Positions 3,386-43,300 of a stretch of 64,000 nucleotides of DNA are shown one piece after another. Each line of letters starts with the position of its first letter. The stretch's first letter is position 1. The notes beneath the pieces are model-generated. The model had not been told where the DNA came from and searched no databases. It saw only the letters and a program-made list of their open reading frames with translations. A program made the translations under genes and the position numbers. Source of the stretch: Alphaproteobacteria bacterium (GTDB taxonomy: Bacteria > Pseudomonadota > Alphaproteobacteria > MPNO01); NCBI GenBank assembly GCA_965248835.1, contig CBDFLJ010000001.1, positions 2,176,001-2,240,000 on the forward strand, in the 5' to 3' direction.

Positions 3386-3409
3386 CGCGGGTTCGTATCC
3401 GAAAATGCT

Positions 3410-4480
3410 CTACGGCCGGAACAGGCGTCCGCCGGTCATCGGCGTCGGGACGCCGGTCGTGCTCGGCAGGCTCAACGGCAGGCCGCGCAGGCTGCGCACC
3501 GCGAGATAGGCGAACGCCTGGGCCTCGATGGCATCGCCCGACCAGCCCTGGCTCTCGACCGGCAGGCACGGCACGCCGAGCACGGCGGCCAGACGCGCAA
3601 TGATCTGACGGTTGTGCCGACCGCCGCCGGTGGCAAGCAACAGGCGCGGCGCGGCGGGCAGGTGTTCGAACGCGCGCGCGACCGCCCGGACCGTCACCTC
3701 GACCAGGCTGGCCGCGCCGTCGGCCGCGGGCAGTTCGGCGACCGGCGCGAGGTCGAAATCGAGACGGTCGAGCGATTTCGGCGGCGCCCGGTCGTAATAG
3801 GGATCGGCGAGATATCGGGCCACCGCCGCTGCGTCCGGCCGCCCCGATGCCGCGAGCCGCCCGCCCTCGTCATACCGCGCGCCGGTATGGCGCTCGGTCC
3901 ATTGATCGATCAGCCCGTTTCCCGGTCCCGTGTCAAAGGCGATGGGAGGCACCTGTTCGCCGATCCAGGTGAGGTTCGCGATGCCGCCGATGTTGAGCAC
4001 CGCGACAGGCTTTTCAAGGGGTGCGGCGAGCGCGGCGTGGAACAGCGGCGCCAACGGCGCGCCCTGGCCGCCAGCGGCGACATCGGCGGCGCGGAAGTCG
4101 CACACCACGGGGAGCCCAAGTGCGGAAGCCAGCTTTGCGCCATCGCCGATCTGTAGCGTCAGACGGTCCCTGGGGCGGTGATCGACCGTATGGCCGTGGA
4201 AGCCGATCAGGTCGACGGGCCGATGTCCGGCAACCAGCGCGCGCACGGCGTCGGCGTGGCGGCGCGTAAGCTCCGCGGCGACGGGTTCCAGGCCGGCGGT
4301 CCTGCCCAGCCGGTCGGCGAGCCGGCGGCGGAAATCATCGGGATAGGGTGCGGTGAGCCATGGGCCGAACGCTGCGATGGTCTCGCCGTCGGTCTGGATC
4401 AGCGCCGCATCGATGCCGTCGAGGGAGGTGCCGCTCATCAGCCCGAGGGCCCAGAGCGGCTCCGGCCCGTCGGCCGTCAA
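3410..4480 (-). CDS. anmK: Anhydro-N-acetylmuramic acid kinase
   Basis: GLMSGTSLDGIDAA, GFHGHT, GGQGAPLAP, NIGGIAN, FDTGPGN; TTG start at 4480 overlaps upstream stop (TTGA). Confidence 0.92.
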   Translation of the reverse strand: MTADGPEPLWALGLMSGTSLDGIDAALIQTDGETIAAFGPWLTAPYPDDFRRRLADRLGRTAGLEPVAAELTRRHADAVRALVAGHRPVDLIGFHGHTVDHRPRDRLTLQIGDGAKLASALGLPVVCDFRAADVAAGGQGAPLAPLFHAALAAPLEKPVAVLNIGGIANLTWIGEQVPPIAFDTGPGNGLIDQWTERHTGARYDEGGRLAASGRPDAAAVARYLADPYYDRAPPKSLDRLDFDLAPVAELPAADGAASLVEVTVRAVARAFEHLPAAPRLLLATGGGRHNRQIIARLAAVLGVPCLPVESQGWSGDAIEAQAFAYLAVRSLRGLPLSLPSTTGVPTPMTGGRLFRP

Positions 4481-36951: not shown

Positions 36952-37056
36952 GACCGCCGCATTCCCCTGTTGACCCGTCCGGATACATCGCTGGCCGAAG
37001 CTTGTCCTCCCTTTGTCCGGCGAGCGAGGGTGTTCGCCTGAATCAACCATGTCATT

Positions 37057-37074
37057 GTTACAGCCAGATGACGG
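37057..37074 (-). promoter_or_regulatory. Putative Pho box upstream of arsC
   Basis: Minus strand CCGTCAT-CTGG-CTGTAAC, one mismatch per half-site vs CTGTCAY-N4-CTGTCAY. Confidence 0.55.
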
Positions 37075-37291
37075 CGCTTTGGCATTCCCGGGACCGGGCG
37101 GCATTGCCGCGCCGATGCCGGTCTCGGACCGGCGCAGCAGGCGGCGGCGCGGCGAATGCATCTTCGAGGGATTCGGGTGCGGATTTCGCGCGCCGAAGAC
37201 TATGCCGGAACGCTTGCGCGCTTGTTAGGCGTCGCAATCAGCGGCGGCCACGCTATGACATCTTGCAGCAGGTTCCGTGACCTCGGCAGCA

Positions 37292-37378
37292 TGGTGCGGG
37301 CGGTGAGACTCGAACTCACACCTCCTTGCGGAGAACGGCTTTTGAGGCCGCCGCGTCTACCGATTCCGCCACGCCCGC
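37292..37378 (-). tRNA. tRNA-Leu (CAA)
   Basis: GCGGGCG acceptor stem, CT-CAA-AA loop, long variable arm, GTTCGAG T-loop, encoded CCA. Confidence 0.97.
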
Positions 37379-37405
37379 TTCAAGGCATCAGGATGCGTAA
37401 GGCAT

Positions 37406-37434
37406 TGTGTAAGGCTGCCCCGACGCGGTGTCAA
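37406..37434 (-). promoter_or_regulatory. Sigma70-like promoter of tRNA-Leu
   Basis: TTGACA (37434-37429), 17 nt, TACACA. Confidence 0.5.
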
Positions 37435-37494
37435 ACGCCAACATGTTCATATATTTGTCTTTTCCCGTGTCCGTTTGAACAGATTTTCGGGGTT

Positions 37495-37731
37495 GTGTGA
37501 CCTTGAGTGGTACAGGAGCTGCGGTAACCGGCTTGTCGCCGCCAGACTCTCGGCAGGCGCGGCGACAAGCCGGTTACCCACAGCTACCAGAGGCTCCAAC
37601 AACTCTTACACCACGCTGGCGCACCTTCGGTGCTAACCCGTTGAGGTAGGGTCGTTTTTCTCTCCCGTCGAAGCCGGCCAGGAACGGATTCTGCAACTGT
37701 CTGTTCCCCGGCTGCAACCGAAACCGGGAGA
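37495..37731 (+). ncRNA. Putative structured leader (RNA or ssDNA) upstream of tandem integrases
   Basis: Perfect 20-bp IR 37523-37542/37559-37578 with outer stems; long hairpin 37661-37731 covering the SD. Confidence 0.5.
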
Positions 37732-37736
37732 CATAG

Positions 37737-38858
37737 ATGCCCCACCTTACCCTCACCGAGGCCCGCGTCAGGGCGCTCACGCGCCGCAAGGCCGCCTACG
37801 ACATCCGCGACGGCCAGCTCAGGGGCTTCGGCGTCCGGGTGCTGCACTCGGGTCGGAAACGTTTCTTCGTCCACTGCCAGCATCGCGGAGAACGCGTCTG
37901 GAAGATCATTGGCGACGCCGGGACCATAACCGTGACAGAGGCGCGATCCCGTGCCGCCGAAATGCTTGCAGCAATCCGGCGGGGCGAGGACGCACCCTGC
38001 CGGCCCGACGAAACGCTCTTCGAGGCCGTCGCCGAGACCGTGTTCGAGCGCTACGCGCGGGTCTGGAAGGCCGGGACGCTTTATGTCAACCGGAGCTATC
38101 TCCGCAATCAGCTCCTGCCGCGCTTCGCGGGGCGCGCCATCGCCGATATCGACCCTGAGGACGTCCGCAAGTGGTTCGCCTCCCTGCGCGCGACGCCGGT
38201 CGCGGCCGACAGGTCCATGCCGGTTCTGTCCGTCATCATGAGAGAAGCGGAACGGATGGGCCTTCGCCCGGAGGGGTCCAACCCCTGCCGGGGCATCCGG
38301 CGCTATCGCCGGAAGGGGCGCGAGCGCTTCCTGTCGGACGACGAGATCCGCCGGGTCTCCGCCAGGCTGTCGGCGCATCAGCCTGCACAACCGCAACAGG
38401 TCGCCGCCATCCGGCTCCTTCTCCTGACGGGGTGCCGCAAGAGCGAAATCCTGACCCTGCGCTGGTCCGATTACCGCGAGGGACATCTCTTCCTGCGCGA
38501 TAGCAAGACCGGACCCCGAACCGTCTGGCTGTCGCAGCCGGCCAGGCGCATCCTCGACATGCTGGGGCGGACGAGCCCATGGGTCTTTCCGGCGTCGCGA
38601 ACGAACCGCCCCCGGAGCACGCAGTGGCTGCACAACTTCTGGCGCCGTCTCCGTAGGGAGACGGAGCTGTGCGATGTGCGTCTTCACGATTTGCGCCATA
38701 CCCATGCGAGCCTTGCACTGAGACAGGGCGAAACCGTCCTGGCGATCGGCAGGCTGCTCGGTCACCGGAATCCGGAGACGACGCTCAAATACACGCATCT
38801 GGCCGACACAATGGTTCGCGAAGCTGCCGAGACGGTCGGCGCCGTGCTGGAGGGCTGA
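37737..38858 (+). CDS. Tyrosine recombinase/integrase 1 with N-terminal arm-binding domain
   Basis: DGQLRGFGVRV..SGRKRF arm domain; TGCRKSEI, DSKTG, LHDLRH, LLGH, TLKYTHL. Confidence 0.93.
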   Translation: MPHLTLTEARVRALTRRKAAYDIRDGQLRGFGVRVLHSGRKRFFVHCQHRGERVWKIIGDAGTITVTEARSRAAEMLAAIRRGEDAPCRPDETLFEAVAETVFERYARVWKAGTLYVNRSYLRNQLLPRFAGRAIADIDPEDVRKWFASLRATPVAADRSMPVLSVIMREAERMGLRPEGSNPCRGIRRYRRKGRERFLSDDEIRRVSARLSAHQPAQPQQVAAIRLLLLTGCRKSEILTLRWSDYREGHLFLRDSKTGPRTVWLSQPARRILDMLGRTSPWVFPASRTNRPRSTQWLHNFWRRLRRETELCDVRLHDLRHTHASLALRQGETVLAIGRLLGHRNPETTLKYTHLADTMVREAAETVGAVLEG

Positions 38859-38861
38859 GGC

Positions 38862-40010
38862 ATGGCAAGCAAGGAACGCATGCGGCTTAGCGACGCCGCC
38901 GTCGCCCGCCATCGCCCCCGCGAGCGGGAATATACGGTCTGGGACACGCGCATTGCCGGTCTCGGCGTCCGGGTTCGACCGTCCGGTGGGCGGAGTTGGA
39001 TATTCCTGCACAAGACCGGCGGTGGGACTCGCAGGATATTCCTCGGTCAGGCGGAGCTGAAGACAGTCGAGGAGGTTCGCCGCGAGTGCCATGCGCTCGC
39101 GGCGGAACTCGGGAGCGAGGACAAGCCGGACAAGATCCGCCATGCTGTCCCGTCGTTCCGGGACTTCGTCGCCGGCACATGGAAAGAGGCCCATTGCGAC
39201 CGCTACAAGCCGTCAACCCAAAGGGGCGTGCGATCCATCCTTGCCGGGCAACTGCTGCCCGCCTTCGGATCGAAACCGCTGGACCGCATATCCCCGACAC
39301 AGGTCAGGCGCTGGTTCGACATATACAGCCGAACCGCCCCGGGCGGCGCCAACCGTGCTCTCGACCTTCTCCGGCAGATCATGAACGTCGCGGTTGCCTG
39401 CAGCCATATCGACACCAACCCGGCGCGCGGCGTCAAAAGGAACCGGCGCGCGGCGCTCACGCGGTTCCTGTCGCGCGAGGAGATCGCCCGCCTGCACCGG
39501 GTGCTGGACAGGCAAACCCGAAAGAGCAGCCGGCAGCAGGCCGACGTCATCCGTCTCCTGCTTCTGACCGGGTGCCGCAAGGGCGAAATCCTCCGCCTGC
39601 GCTGGTCCGCGGTCCAAGACGACATCCTTGTGTTGGCGGACAGCAAAACCGGGCCGAGAACGGTTCCTCTCAATACACAGGCCCGGCGCATCCTCGAACG
39701 CCAGCCGCGAGGCGCGAGCTCTTTCGTGTTTCCATCGCCGCGTGACCTGGCCCGGCCACGTGGTCCCAACCTCCCGCTCTGGTATCCGGTCCGGCGGGAA
39801 GCCGGCATCGAGGATGTTCGCCTTCACGACCTGCGCCATACCCATGCGAGCCACGCGGTGATGAACGGCGTGCCGGTGCCGGTCGTCTCGCGCCTGCTCG
39901 GTCACAGCAATGTGCGTATGACGCTGCGCTACGCCCATCTTGGGGACCGGGAAATCGAGGCGGCGGCCGAGAGGGTCGGGCAATCCATCGCCGCCATCAT
40001 GGGCATTTGA
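38862..40010 (+). CDS. Tyrosine recombinase/integrase 2, paralogue of integrase 1
   Basis: WDTRIAGLGVRVRPSG; TGCRKGEI, DSKTG, LHDLRH, LLGH, TLRYAHL. Confidence 0.93.
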   Translation: MASKERMRLSDAAVARHRPREREYTVWDTRIAGLGVRVRPSGGRSWIFLHKTGGGTRRIFLGQAELKTVEEVRRECHALAAELGSEDKPDKIRHAVPSFRDFVAGTWKEAHCDRYKPSTQRGVRSILAGQLLPAFGSKPLDRISPTQVRRWFDIYSRTAPGGANRALDLLRQIMNVAVACSHIDTNPARGVKRNRRAALTRFLSREEIARLHRVLDRQTRKSSRQQADVIRLLLLTGCRKGEILRLRWSAVQDDILVLADSKTGPRTVPLNTQARRILERQPRGASSFVFPSPRDLARPRGPNLPLWYPVRREAGIEDVRLHDLRHTHASHAVMNGVPVPVVSRLLGHSNVRMTLRYAHLGDREIEAAAERVGQSIAAIMGI

Positions 40011-40111
40011 CCGTGCGGTTGCCGGTGTCGATCCAAGCGGTTCCGCGAACCGTTGTGACCAATTGCAAGATGATTGATCGTTTGGTTAGCAGCCTCCGTT
40101 TAACACTCTGC

Positions 40112-40156
40112 CTCATAACCTGAAGGTCGTTGGTTCAAATCCAACCCCCGCAACCA
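40112..40156 (+). mobile_element. att core: 3' half of initiator tRNA-Met
   Basis: CTCATAACCTGAAGGTCGTTGGTTCAAATCCAACCCCCGCAACCA from anticodon loop to CCA; no 5' half upstream. Confidence 0.88.
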
Positions 40157-40159
40157 AAT

Positions 40160-40193
40160 AAAGCCCGTAACTTCAAATAGTTACGGGCTTTTT
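40160..40193 (+). terminator. Intrinsic terminator after the att core, probably bidirectional
   Basis: AAAGCCCGTAACT-TCAAAT-AGTTACGGGCTTT-TT. Confidence 0.8.
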
Positions 40194-40221
40194 CGTTTTG
40201 GCGCGCCAGCGCAATTTATGT

Positions 40222-40342: not shown

Positions 40343-43300
40343 TCAGAACCGCATCTGGCCGCGCAGCATCACAGCGTGATCCGCGGCGGCATCGTTGGCC
40401 GGCTCGCGCCGCGCGCCCTCGAAGCTCAGGTCGAACGCGGGCGCGATCTCGAAGCGAATACCGATCCGGTAACGTCGCGACCCTTCGTCCGCCAGCGCGA
40501 ACCCGCCATAGGGTGTCAGCAGCCCCTGGCCGCCGAGCGCGCCGAAGCCATAGCCGAGCTCGCCGTCCAGCCGCATCTGCGGGACGTTGTCATTGGCCGT
40601 CCCATCGTCGCTCGCCAGTTCGGCGACGTCCTGGTCCCACAGACGATCCACCCCGCTCGCCGTCTCGCCCCAGGCCGGGAAGAGGCTGAACGACAGTCCC
40701 CGCCCTTCGGCGCCCGGGTCGAGGCGGAGCGAGCCGCCGAGGCCCCATTCCCGGTAATCGCTCTGCCCCGCCAGCACCCGGCCGTTGCCCTCGATCGTCA
40801 GGCCCGAAGCCGGGTCGCGATAACGCAAGCTGCCGCCGATCTCGATGCCGGTGCCGGTGATCCCGTCGCCCCCGTCATGGCGCAGACCCAGCTCCAGGGA
40901 CGGCGTCAGGGACCCGCCCGAGGCCAGCGCCTGCTCGTGGCTGCCCTCCAGCGCCAGCCGCAGACGGTTGGCGTTCACCGTCTGCTGCGCGATCAGGCCG
41001 TCGTCGCCCTCGCCCTCGACCTCGACCTGCGCCCACGAGGCCTCGCCCTTGAGCATGAGCGTCGTCGTGCCGCCCGCGATCGGCGACTCATCGGTCATCA
41101 AGGGACCGCTCGCGCCCGCCGCCGCCGTCTTGAGCGTCGTGTCGCTGCGCCTTACCGGGTAGTCGGGGTCGCCATCGCGCACCTGCGCGTCCTCGATCTC
41201 GATATCGCCCCACCCATAGCCCACCGTCGCCCAGAGACCGAGACCCTGTGGCGAGGTCCAGCCCAGATAGGGATGAACGCTGGTCATCCGGCTCTGATAG
41301 TCGCCGCGCACCGGCGACGATCCGGTACCGTCGCTATAGTCGAATTCGCCGATCGAGCGCGACAGCGCGAGCCCGGTCAGGAGATCGTCGCGCAGGCATC
41401 CGTCGATGCCGATCTGGCCGGTCAGCACCGTGCCGTCCCAGGCGAAGGCGGACTCCGTGCTCTCCAGCACCTGCCGCTCGCCCCGGCCCCACACCACCGG
41501 CCCGCCGGCGCCGGGTGCCATGCCGTCGTTCACCGCCGCGAGCGGCAGCCGGAAGGACGAGCCAGCCAGCACGTCGTCGAGGGTGAGCGTACCGTCCTCG
41601 ATCGCCGGCGCGTTGGATCGCAGCGCGCCGGCGATGGTCGACCCGCCGGCCAGCGTGTAGGCGGCCGCCTGTTTGCCGCACGCCTCGTCCATGCGCGCAC
41701 CGATCGCCCGGTTGGTCACATCGGCGAGGGTCAGCGCGTGCTTGGAGAGAATCTCGTCGTTCAGGCGCCGGAAGCGCGCCTGGACCACGGCGCCTTCAGC
41801 GTCGATGATGGTCAGCGTGGCCGCGGCCGGCGCGCCTTTCGCCACGTCCGTGGGCAGGTCACCGAAGCCCAGCGCCACCCTCACGTCATGGAAATTGTCG
41901 TCTTGTTGGGCCTGTCCCGTGGCCTCGATGGTGAAGCTCCTGGTGGTGTCGCCCATCTCCTCGAATTTGAGCGTGACGGTCCCGGTCGCAGGATCCAAGA
42001 CATCCGGATCCGTAACCGTAACCGTATAGTCGGCCGCCACGGTCCGGCCCAGTGGGGTCACCGTGATCGGGATCTCCAGCGCGTCGGCCGCTTGCTTGCT
42101 CAGCTTCACCGTCACCCTGACCGGATCGCCGCCCTCTTCGACCGCATAGGCCGCGGCGCCGAAGCGCACCGAATACACCCGCACCACGCTAATGGCCATG
42201 GCGTACGCCACGCTGTCGCTCTCGCCGTCACTGACCTTGAACCCGAACGTCGCGATAGGATCGCCGTGCGCGTTCTCCGGCGGAGTGTAGAGGAGGTTGC
42301 CCGCTTCGAGGTCGGCCGGCGTCACCTGCGGGGGTGGGGTGACGCTGGTGATGGCCGCGCCGTTAAGCGACAGCGTCCCCCGGTCATTCCCCTCGTCATC
42401 CACGGGCGGCGAGGCGATCGTCACGTGGTGCAGTGTGTTCTCTTCGATGTCCGAATAGTCGAAGTCTTTCATCGTAAAGCGGTACGATTCGTTATCGTTC
42501 ATAGACACCTTCCCGTTGTAACCCGTGGGGGGGTTGTTGAACGGCGTGGCGTTGGCGGCGGATGCGTCGCCCTCGCCGGCATCGTTCATCGCGCGCACTG
42601 CCAACGTGTACTCGGTGCCGTTTTCCAGGCTGGGAACGGTGTATCCGGTGGCATTGGTCTGGCCATGGGCGCTGTTGGGGATGTTGGTGAAGCTATCGTC
42701 ACCGTTGATGCTGACCTGGTAGCCGGTGATGGTGCTGTCGTTCGGATCGGCCCACTCAAGCTCGACCTGGCGGTAACCCGGCCCGACCGAGGAAATCTCC
42801 GGGGCGGCCGGCGGCGCAATCGGCCTGGCGGTCACGGTGGATGCCGGGCCGTTACCGGGATCGTTTACCGCGCGCACCGCAAAGGTGTACTCGGTGCCGT
42901 TGGTCAGGCCGGTCACGATGTATCCGGTGGGGGGCGCATTGGGGTCGGTTACGGGGATGTTCGCCCAGTCAGTGTAGGTATTGTCGTCGCTGTTCCTCAC
43001 CTTCGAGCGGACCTGGTACTTGGTGATCGATCTGTCGCTCGGATCGTTCCATGCAAGCACCACCTGGCCGTCGCCCGGCGTGGCCGAGGAAATCGTCGGG
43101 GCGTCCGGCACCGCAATCGGTGTGGTCCCCACGCTGGAGGCTTTGCCGTCACCGGAAGCGTTCACCGCGCGCAGCTCAAACCCGTACGCGCTGCCGTTAG
43201 TCAGGCCGGTCACGGTGTAGGTGGTGGTGGTCGCACTGCTGCCGCCGATGTCGCTCCAGTCGCCGAAATCGGCGCCGCTCACCCTCTGCCGGTACTGATA

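Follow-up and report, generated by a model that had tools for sequence, protein, structure and literature searches.

Two tandem integrase genes in an alphaproteobacterial genome are preceded by about 240 nucleotides (nt) of highly structured non-coding DNA: does this sequence belong to the integrases and, if so, in what capacity? The DNA analyzed here is a 64,000-nt stretch of contig CBDFLJ010000001.1 (assembly GCA_965248835.1, Alphaproteobacteria bacterium), hereinafter the window, and the sequence in question occupies positions 37495-37736, directly upstream of the gene for the first integrase, Int1. An earlier note treated it as a single structured component of the integrase pair and suggested that it could be a cis translational switch, a discrete non-coding RNA partner of the recombinases, or a folded single-stranded DNA substrate. 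The features that it listed, namely, a perfect 20-bp inverted repeat with its extensions, the small hairpin GCACC-TTC-GGTGC, a T-run, and a rod that buries the Shine-Dalgarno (SD) sequence, are all indeed found at the positions assigned to them. The 240-nt stretch, however, consists of two adjacent, independent repeats rather than one unit. The first, which we call module A (37517-37619, unstranded), is a dispersed palindromic repeat, and the second (37619-37736, plus strand) is the conserved left-end leader of an element that contains the integrase pair. Our assessment leans, with somewhat better than even confidence, toward the combination of module A with the left terminal arm of an insertion sequence (IS)-like two-integrase element, in which the leader would be an attL-like arm that doubles as an SD-occluding leader.

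Two independent repeats upstream of the integrase pair

The 64-kb window contains 11 inverted repeats that reach 16 nt or more (seed 12, arms at most 80 nt apart), and the perfect inverted repeat (37523-37542/37559-37578, 20 bp with a 16-nt loop, as read from the sequence) is the only one with 100% complementarity. Both the sequence and the minimum free energy fold extend its stem outward through AGCTG/CAGCT (37517-37521/37581-37585), TGGT/ACCA (37508-37511/37586-37589) and GTGTGA/TTACAC, with one G.U pair (37495-37500/37606-37611). Farther downstream lie the T-run (37655-37659) and the rod, a long imperfect hairpin on the plus strand (37661-37731) that is formed by TCTCCCG/CGGGAGA, AGCCGG/CCGGCT and GGAACGGA/TCTGTTCC, and in which the anti-SD sequence TCTCCC (37661-37666) pairs with the SD sequence GGGAGA (37726-37731), six nt ahead of the Int1 ATG at 37737. 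Folded as plus-strand RNA, the region 37480-37745 reaches -122.2 kcal/mol (z = -5.63, none of 200 shuffles equally good), and the minus strand yields z = -3.96.

The two modules repeat independently and overlap only within 37603-37619. Matches to the query 37379-37736 within the window genome (G000) fall into two classes, one covering query positions 139-241 (the hairpin) and the other, positions 225-358 (the leader), the latter recurring at three other places with 96% identity. Across genomes, this query has matches in 15 of 61, G000 counted, including 11 of the 12 genomes of genus g6, and the matches in relatives divide into the two classes as well.

Module A is represented in the window genome by copies at C1:1362597, C1:1384887 and C2:2339156 (82-94% identity), and a search of this genome with a hidden Markov model of the module (nhmmer) recovered four full and two partial copies. 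It is also multi-copy in relatives, with, for example, 9 places in G018 and 10 in G010 within genus g6. Among the nine module A loci that were checked, eight, including L005 and L006, lack a match to Int1 or Int2, and in L007 the only integrase trace is a 41-aa C-terminal remnant; the module abuts a leader only in the window and in L032. Because its copies mostly occur without integrases, the big hairpin is not a component of the integrase module but a dispersed repeat similar to repetitive extragenic palindromic (REP) sequences or to MITEs (miniature transposable elements with inverted repeats), with both the dispersed palindromic copies and the independence from the integrase pair that characterize such repeats. 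Module A is like them in its multi-copy state, in its strong palindromy, in arms that vary from copy to copy in the copy alignment and still keep their complementarity, and in matches on both strands. It differs in size (~140 nt, with a 20-27-bp stem), in a 27-nt tail, ending in CTCTTACACCAC, that is also found immediately downstream of an IS256-family transposase gene, and in the low copy number in the window genome. Thus, the 240 nt do not make up a single component that belongs with the integrase pair, and the generic REP that the note had named as a refuting outcome is what the hairpin turned out to be; conservation among homologous elements, the lack of which would likewise have been a refuting outcome, is found in the rod.

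A compact multi-copy element with a sharp left boundary

Int1 (37737-38858, plus strand, 373 aa) and its paralog Int2 (38862-40010, plus strand, 382 aa), which starts 3 nt after the Int1 stop codon, are P4-type tyrosine integrases with the Pfam domains Arm-DNA-bind_3 and Phage_integrase. The arm-binding domain (PF13356), which integrases served by an att arm are expected to have, is detected in both (E = 1.4e-11 for Int1 and 3.8e-7 for Int2), and both carry the LHDLRHT...Y residues, noted in Int1 as LHDLRHT...GH...Y. A scan guided by protein sequence, in which each species was represented by one genome, revealed Int1 relatives with 65-96% identity at 66 loci. In each of the 49 loci in which Int1 is full-length, the Int1 match is followed by an Int2 homolog, at a distance of ~6-19 nt except in L033, where the Int2 match lies 74 nt after the Int1 match and begins at residue 43. 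The hosts are mostly Defluviicoccus, Rhodospirillales or unclassified alphaproteobacterial metagenome-assembled genomes (MAGs), with several copies per genome. Near-identical elements, L031 and L066, are found in contigs labeled as Dehalococcoidia and Chloroflexota MAGs, the other hosts all being alphaproteobacteria, and these two copies reflect either horizontal transfer or mis-binning.

The element comprises the leader and the two tandem integrase genes, without cargo, spans ~2.4-2.5 kb, and is multi-copy. Its left boundary is sharp: across 75 distinct upstream regions, conservation starts abruptly ~130 nt before the ATG, at ACACC/CGCACC. Four copies in the window genome share the sequence from 37603 onward with 96-99% identity and have unrelated left flanks; of those outside the window, one extends to 39843, one to 39459, and one has an internal deletion. 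The identity of the window to L027, L059 and L083 begins at 37619. In other genomes, paralogous units start ~120-140 nt before the Int1 ATG and end ~10-55 nt after the Int2 stop codon, and the flanks on both sides differ among them, which delimits a core unit of ~2.4 kb. The repeated unit is extended upstream of the leader by ~1.1 kb in L033 and L034 and, in L028-L031, by ~470 nt that contain an IS3-family left end and orfA (PF01527; positions ~3398-3880); there, orfA is cut at ...LEHELHTAQ, exactly at the leader start, and three chromosomal copies share both ends. The leader, accordingly, is located at the boundary of the mobile unit, where an att arm is expected. A covariance model of the leader (R1) matches the window at 37609-37742 with 83 bits and has 82 matches overall (77 distinct), each directly before an Int1-type start codon and only one of them in the window; a tighter threshold removed ten weak minus-strand matches along with L084.

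The junction, as defined by copy comparison (37603-37618, plus strand), consists of the target-side sequence CTCTTACACCAC, with ACACC at 37608-37612, and a 4-nt patch at 37615-37618. This patch, between CACCAC and GCGCACC, differs among the four otherwise near-identical copies in the window genome and so behaves as would be expected of a crossover or coupling segment.

These comparisons bear on the possibility that the leader encodes an RNA that works in trans with the recombinases, as a guide similar to a bridge RNA or as a structural cofactor. A conserved, structured sequence of ~120 nt in a multi-copy element, at the end next to the recombinase genes, could suit such a role, as could the GCAAC motif in its apical loop (36 of 77 leaders), and the leader has no counterpart in Rfam: in the window, only a tRNA passes the gathering threshold, and in E-value mode, the best matches within 37380-37800 are miRNA-precursor models with 28-29 bits against thresholds of 98-150. 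However, the leaders of the window and L027, with 93% identity, adjoin different target-side motifs (CTCTTACACCAC and GGAATACACCTTAAC, respectively), which also speaks against loops that vary with the target site, and the four own copies combine the same rod with different junction patches. Furthermore, no terminator delimits a discrete RNA (no terminator-like site was found within 37000-38000), and the recombinases are ordinary heterobivalent tyrosine integrases. An IS110-type bridge RNA does not agree with the different targets of near-identical leaders and with recombinases that are not of the DEDD type, and we consider a trans-acting partner of any kind to be very improbable.

A folded single-stranded DNA substrate, like integron attC or the CTX phage attP, is brought to mind by a hairpin-rich sequence that adjoins two tyrosine recombinases and folds on both strands. 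The large hairpin, however, lies outside the element, and the TAAC/GTTA stem on which the attC comparison was based is part of the unrelated repeat. The attC inverse core/core consensus at the stem base is RYYYAAC...GTTRRRY, which the stem CGGTAAC...GGTTACC does not fit. Int1 and Int2 score only 30.0 and 39.1 bits with the integron-integrase model TIGR02249, the cut-off being 265, and the Xer models are also far below their cut-offs, whereas the arm-binding domains and the integration host factor (IHF)-like site described below point to a duplex intasome. The locus shares with integron attC, CTX attP and the IS110 bridge RNA the presence of a structured nucleic acid beside a recombinase and lacks their defining features, so that we give a single-stranded substrate hardly any credence.

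Targets and breakpoints

The ACACC motif belongs to the target side: in L082, the identity to the intact sibling gene in L081 runs through ACACG and about five further bases. In L082, a second leader and integrase pair abut an integrase gene that is cut at the R-H-T codons, and ACACG and the spacer come from that gene; a simple insertion is ruled out in this case, the reciprocal int fragment being missing. Exact ACACC precedes the invariant CGCACC by 5-8 nt (mode 6) in 66 of the 73 leaders aligned with MAFFT (from the 75 upstream regions; L084 and L086, with long insertions, were omitted), and near variants occupy this place in the other seven; upstream of ACACC, the 73 leaders show no conservation except for a pyrimidine at -1. 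The left flanks of leaders include the tail of the hairpin repeat (in the window and in L032), the sequence ~42 nt after the stop codon of an IS256/Mutator-family transposase gene (PF00872), and the 3' end of an IS3-family orfA (PF01527). The best explanation of the arrangement in the window is that the tail of module A (CTCTTACACCAC...) served as the insertion target of the integrase-pair element. In a search of the window, CTCTTACACCAC recurred nowhere useful and GGGGACACAAC was absent, so that the remaining part of the interrupted repeat was not located.

Several copies are cut within the integrase genes themselves. Copies c2 and c4 in the window genome end at the HDLRHT codons of Int2 (~residue 327), Int1 of L082 is cut at residue 324, and in L027, L032, L040, L067 and L079, the Int1 or Int2 matches obtained with tblastn stop at residues 325-328; L027 continues into an in-frame-shifted copy of the same gene and, therefore, probably represents a frameshift, not a junction. 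These codons are a possible recurrent breakpoint. In the window, they are located at 38673-38712 (Int1) and 39813-39852 (Int2) and include a site, AYAC(C/G) followed by ~7 nt, that resembles the target of the element. To the right of the truncated Int2 of copy c2 (G000:C2:644500-644774), there is an apparent transposase C-terminus on the opposite strand, presumably an IS630-family end, judging by a motif. In L007 (G000:C1:1384887-1385140), the tail of the hairpin repeat, ...GGGGACACAACC, leads directly into a frameshifted integrase remnant (residues ~324-364), an arrangement that resembles the reciprocal outcome of a recombination event at the RHT site.

Candidate protein-binding sites in the leader

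The conserved block between the terminal inverted repeat and the T-run is now read as a putative IHF site. Its core, TCAR-N4-TTR (37634-37644), followed by an A-tract (37655-37659; 37634-37659 altogether, minus strand), was recognized with the IHF consensus, which we take to be WATCARNNNNTTR. Of the 77 distinct leaders, 74 have the IHF-like core at this position and 27 have the full 13-mer, with the window leader among those that have no more than the core; the background is 0.0019 for the core and 0.00034 for the 13-mer per 46 nt; the A-tract is located ~8 nt away, on the 5' side of the core. A 4-codon frame, GTG CTA ACN NNN TGA (37631-37645), overlies the invariant bases of this block, and a leader peptide is unlikely because some ten leaders have GTT instead of GTG. 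The idea that the conserved leader blocks are sigma-54 or sigma-70 sites was weighed by eye and dropped.

Candidate arm-type sites (37693-37725, plus strand) are the GCAAC repeats at 37693-37697, in the apical loop, and at 37714-37718, and the degenerate GAAACC at 37720-37725. A leader contains 0-5 copies of GCAAC and 0-2 copies of the inverted GTTGC, with at least two motifs in total in 73 of 77, compared with 0.12 and 0.08, respectively, expected per 130 nt of coding sequence. At alignment column 155, GCAAC is present in 67 of the 77 leaders, a tandem second copy in 36, and the apical-loop copy likewise in 36. The copy on the 5' strand of the hairpin is inverted in 37 leaders and direct in 16, an orientation-independence that argues for a protein-binding site.

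Conservation of the leader fold

The R1 model was seeded from 26 alignable rows, chosen for GTTGCA on the 5' strand, for which RNAalifold predicts three helices. In the R1 alignment of the 77 distinct leaders, 92.2% of the cells are paired, compared with 30-61% when the partners are slid. The terminal inverted repeat, or hairpin, GCACC-TTC-GGTGC (37621-37633, plus strand) is paired in 96.6% of the cells, with a loop that varies in length, about 3-5 nt, and one double change, from C-G to U-A. The anti-SD:SD helix (TCTCCC:GGGAGA, helix 2) is paired in 98.1%, with double changes at four of the six pairs, albeit in few cells, for example, CCTCCT/AGGAGG in two divergent copies of L047. Its non-Watson-Crick cells, which are not independent events, comprise 21 G.U and 5 A.C combinations, and the excess of G.U favors pairing in the plus-strand RNA. 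Folded individually, the leaders show a median z of -3.05 on the plus strand and -1.80 on the minus strand. Of the 72 distinct interiors of the SD helix, 65 fold as a single unbranched hairpin (median z = -2.86), and the apical stems differ strongly in sequence between subfamilies. The SD sequence is thus base-paired in a conserved helix, as in SD-occluding leaders, and to this extent the cis translational switch proposed in the earlier note fits the rod; neither a switch ligand nor an alternative fold was found.

Could the leader be nothing but RNA? In that case, it would be a 5' untranslated region with a hairpin that hides the SD sequence, and the conserved blocks would be RNA motifs, namely, a 5' stabilizing hairpin and a U-tract for S1 or Hfq, as in IS200 or ISPpu9, with no role as a recombination site. 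This explanation accommodates the conservation of the SD helix with G.U-type changes, the better folding of the plus strand relative to shuffles, and the varying loop length of the first hairpin, a kind of variation that would disturb an RNA hairpin less than protein sites at a set spacing, and the descriptions of IS200 and ISPpu9 provide precedents (PMC4513863, PMC8450116). It leaves out of account the exact coincidence of the leader start with the element boundary, the GCAAC copies, for which both orientations are seen at one position, the retention in nearly all leaders (74/77) of the IHF-like core, accompanied by an A-tract in the right position, and the arm-binding domains of both integrases, which require arm sites somewhere. 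We regard a purely RNA-level function as quite unlikely.

The combined reading, an attachment arm and an SD-occluding leader in one, also has a number of observations weighing against it. On the RNA side, RNAalifold finds only 6 pairs (-2.3 kcal/mol) in the MAFFT alignment of the 73 leaders; the choice of seed rows by GTTGCA inflates helix 3 (GTTGCA/TGCAAC), which in the 77 leaders is just 82% paired, with 31 A.C against 7 G.U cells; and covariation is thin, with double changes in 9 cells, because the helices are nearly invariant. Fixed-register apical pairs are 66-69% paired compared with 58-67% at a slide of +/-1, without column-wise covariation, and because the fixed columns do not beat these slides, the apical evidence is one of hairpin propensity, not of proven covariation. 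A further short hairpin, which seemed by eye to covary in the block that separates the terminal repeat from the T-run, was rejected because it did no better than slid controls in three registers (50-72% paired compared with 11-62% when slid), neither a sigma-70-like promoter nor a terminator was recognized inside the leader, and the hairpin itself could be a by-product of the inverted GCAAC/GTTGC sites, given the 37 inverted and 16 direct arrangements among the 77 leaders. On the DNA side, no reciprocal junction was found for L082, and the right junctions, ~10-55 nt after the Int2 stop codon, show no conserved right-end motif or matching core.

Part of this evidence suits a leader that is purely a DNA attachment arm, with the hairpin being a side effect of protein-binding repeats and purine/pyrimidine asymmetry and the anti-SD match being incidental. 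The apical part without column-wise covariation, the weak RNAalifold result, the folding of both strands below shuffles, the enrichment of the GCAAC and IHF-like motifs, and the paradigm of an attL overlapping a promoter (PMC2951348) are all in line with this explanation. An incidental match would hardly, however, be 98% paired (TCTCCC:GGGAGA), nor would divergent leaders be expected to alter both strands together, as they do with CCTCCT and AGGAGG in the two L047 copies; the 21 to 5 ratio of G.U to A.C in the SD helix, and apical stems that are unrelated in sequence and yet form single hairpins in 65 of 72 cases, also run counter to it. A DNA arm without any function of the hairpin is, in our judgment, unlikely, although this reading, like the purely RNA-level one, accounts for part of the data.

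Under the combined reading, which we continue to favor, the two-module anatomy, the sharp boundary, the multi-copy distribution and the conservation of both the motifs and the SD pairing are observations, from which we infer protein binding, a mode of recombination and translational repression. As DNA, the leader would consist, in order, of the junction, the terminal inverted repeat CGCACC..GGTGC as a putative core-type site, the IHF-like site with its A-tract, and the GCAAC repeats as putative arm-type sites for the Arm-DNA-binding domains of the integrases. Int1, Int2 and IHF would assemble on this attL-type arm, the integrases perhaps as a XerCD-like heteromer, which is suggested because the half-sites around the spacer do not form a dyad, and any targets that the integrases accept would be marked by ACACC with a variable spacer of 5-8 nt. 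In the transcript, the ~70-nt hairpin closed by TCTCCC:GGGAGA would hide the SD sequence and keep Int1, along with the translationally coupled Int2, poorly translated.

A bolder extension of this scheme would have the arm-binding domains bind GCAAC in their own mRNA hairpin, in the apical loop and the 3' strand, as an RNA mimic of the arm that locks the SD sequence, with the DNA being a one-sided att arm used by a XerCD-like heteromeric pair and the element homing to ACACC-N6 sites within other mobile DNA, among them those at the RHT codons of sibling integrases. If true, this would amount to a tyrosine-recombinase pair with an RNA partner; we view it as a long shot.

Relation to known systems

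In published P4- and KplE1-type modules, attL overlaps the int promoter, Int is autoregulated, attL averages 80-170 nt, and IHF sites are located upstream of P4-type int genes (PMC2951348, PMC7286903). The element described here likewise has heterobivalent integrases with an N-terminal arm-binding domain, ~120 nt between the junction and the int ATG, and a core-type site, an IHF-like site and then repeated short motifs in this order, all of these sites being predicted; autoregulation by Int would be expected here, too. It differs in having two tandem integrases in a multi-copy unit of ~2.4 kb without cargo; in a short target, ACACC-N6, instead of a tRNA 3' end; in the lack of a recognized promoter; and in the long SD-occluding hairpin superimposed on the arm. 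In IS200 and ISPpu9, the end of the element contains a long 5' leader, the fold of which covers the ribosome-binding site and keeps recombinase translation low, and ISPpu9 is also located in palindromic repeats (PMC4513863, PMC8450116). These elements, however, encode HUH or DEDD transposases and have antisense small RNAs, whereas the enzymes of the element considered here are tyrosine integrases. The leader thus combines two known kinds of arrangement, an att arm over the 5' region of int and the SD-occluding leader of an IS; the big hairpin of module A, in contrast, is ordinary.

Adjacent tyrosine recombinases that are thought to act jointly at element ends have been described as the XerCD-like pair of the integrative and conjugative elements (ICEs) ICEPmu1 and ICEMh1, as TnpA and TnpB of Tn554, and as RIT trios (PMC6861422, PMC3414803). 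Those are parts of large ICEs, are accompanied by a third gene (TnpC), or come as trios, unlike the present case, in which both proteins are P4-type integrases with arm-binding domains, and the pair with its leader makes up the whole element. The bipartite module (BIM) of Van Houdt et al. consists of a tyrosine recombinase and a conserved non-recombinase SMC-like protein (PMC3414803); assignment to this class is ruled out because both genes here encode integrases. In a literature search on tandem-integrase elements that covered the main texts in one library of papers, only RIT, BIM, Tn554 and the ICE pairs were found, and no cargo-free pair with such a leader, so that the element family appears to be undescribed. 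Among heterology-tolerant integrases that use coupling sequences, those of Tn916 and CTnDOT recognize a short conserved target motif, with several variable bases after it where the junction forms, and ACACC with its variable spacer of 5-8 nt resembles this arrangement.

Right end and neighboring genes

On the right side, a segment specific to the window subfamily (40011-40104, plus strand) was delimited by locus comparison, with L033 diverging after GTTTAAC at ~40104. It is followed, ~95 nt after Int2, by a tRNA 3' fragment (40105-40156, plus strand) comprising the anticodon arm with CAT, the T arm and the acceptor with CCA, which was read from the sequence and was not called by ARAGORN. The ~95 nt after Int2 and the tRNA 3' fragment travel with the pair in L027, L034 and L059, and for this reason, a tRNA-integrating module may have been the ancestor of the window subfamily; in L059, the homology extends farther, into the gene with fibronectin type III (fn3) repeats. 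The tRNA fragment has a compensated T-stem in L034, and its 3' end contains GCAACC, the motif that is repeated in the leader. After the fragment, there is a terminator-like hairpin with a T-run at 40161-40195, and then, on the minus strand, a 2785-aa open reading frame with 17 fn3 repeats (40343-48700). The last ~640 nt of this frame recur with 70-89% identity at C2:802873, C1:1001509, C2:505364 and C1:266585, and the last of these places adjoins a divergent integrase pair (C1:268848-271109).

The left neighbor of the region is a tRNA-Leu(CAA) gene (37292-37378, minus strand; ARAGORN, Rfam tRNA 59.9 bits), the 5' end of which faces the region, with phoB and housekeeping genes farther to the left. 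Between this gene and the hairpin repeat, outside the leader and pointing at the integrases, lies the only sigma-70-like match within 37000-38000 (37428-37455, plus strand, GTGTCA-16-TATATT). A genome of the same genus, G001 (L017, G001:C98), retains the tRNA-Leu and ~85 nt upstream of it (compared with window positions 37291-37480), and the genes that flank this tRNA on both sides in G001 are ~0.83 Mb and 2.03 Mb away in the window genome. The tRNA-Leu locus is, therefore, rearranged between the two genomes, with repeated elements near the breakpoints, and G001 provided no empty-site comparison because the gene order around the tRNA differs.

Implications

What had looked like a mystery RNA becomes a testable anatomy, a compact, cargo-free, multi-copy element with two P4-type integrases and an arm of ~120 nt. 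The 77 distinct leaders provide a ready covariance model for annotating such elements in alphaproteobacterial MAGs. If the element is mobile, it would be a minimal natural system for asking in what way a pair of heterobivalent integrases makes use of a single site, what determines the selection of a target as short as ACACC, and by what means the same sequence can be a recombination arm and a translational brake at once. In the host genomes, as the truncated copies and hybrid junctions indicate, the integrase-pair elements seem to drive rearrangements.

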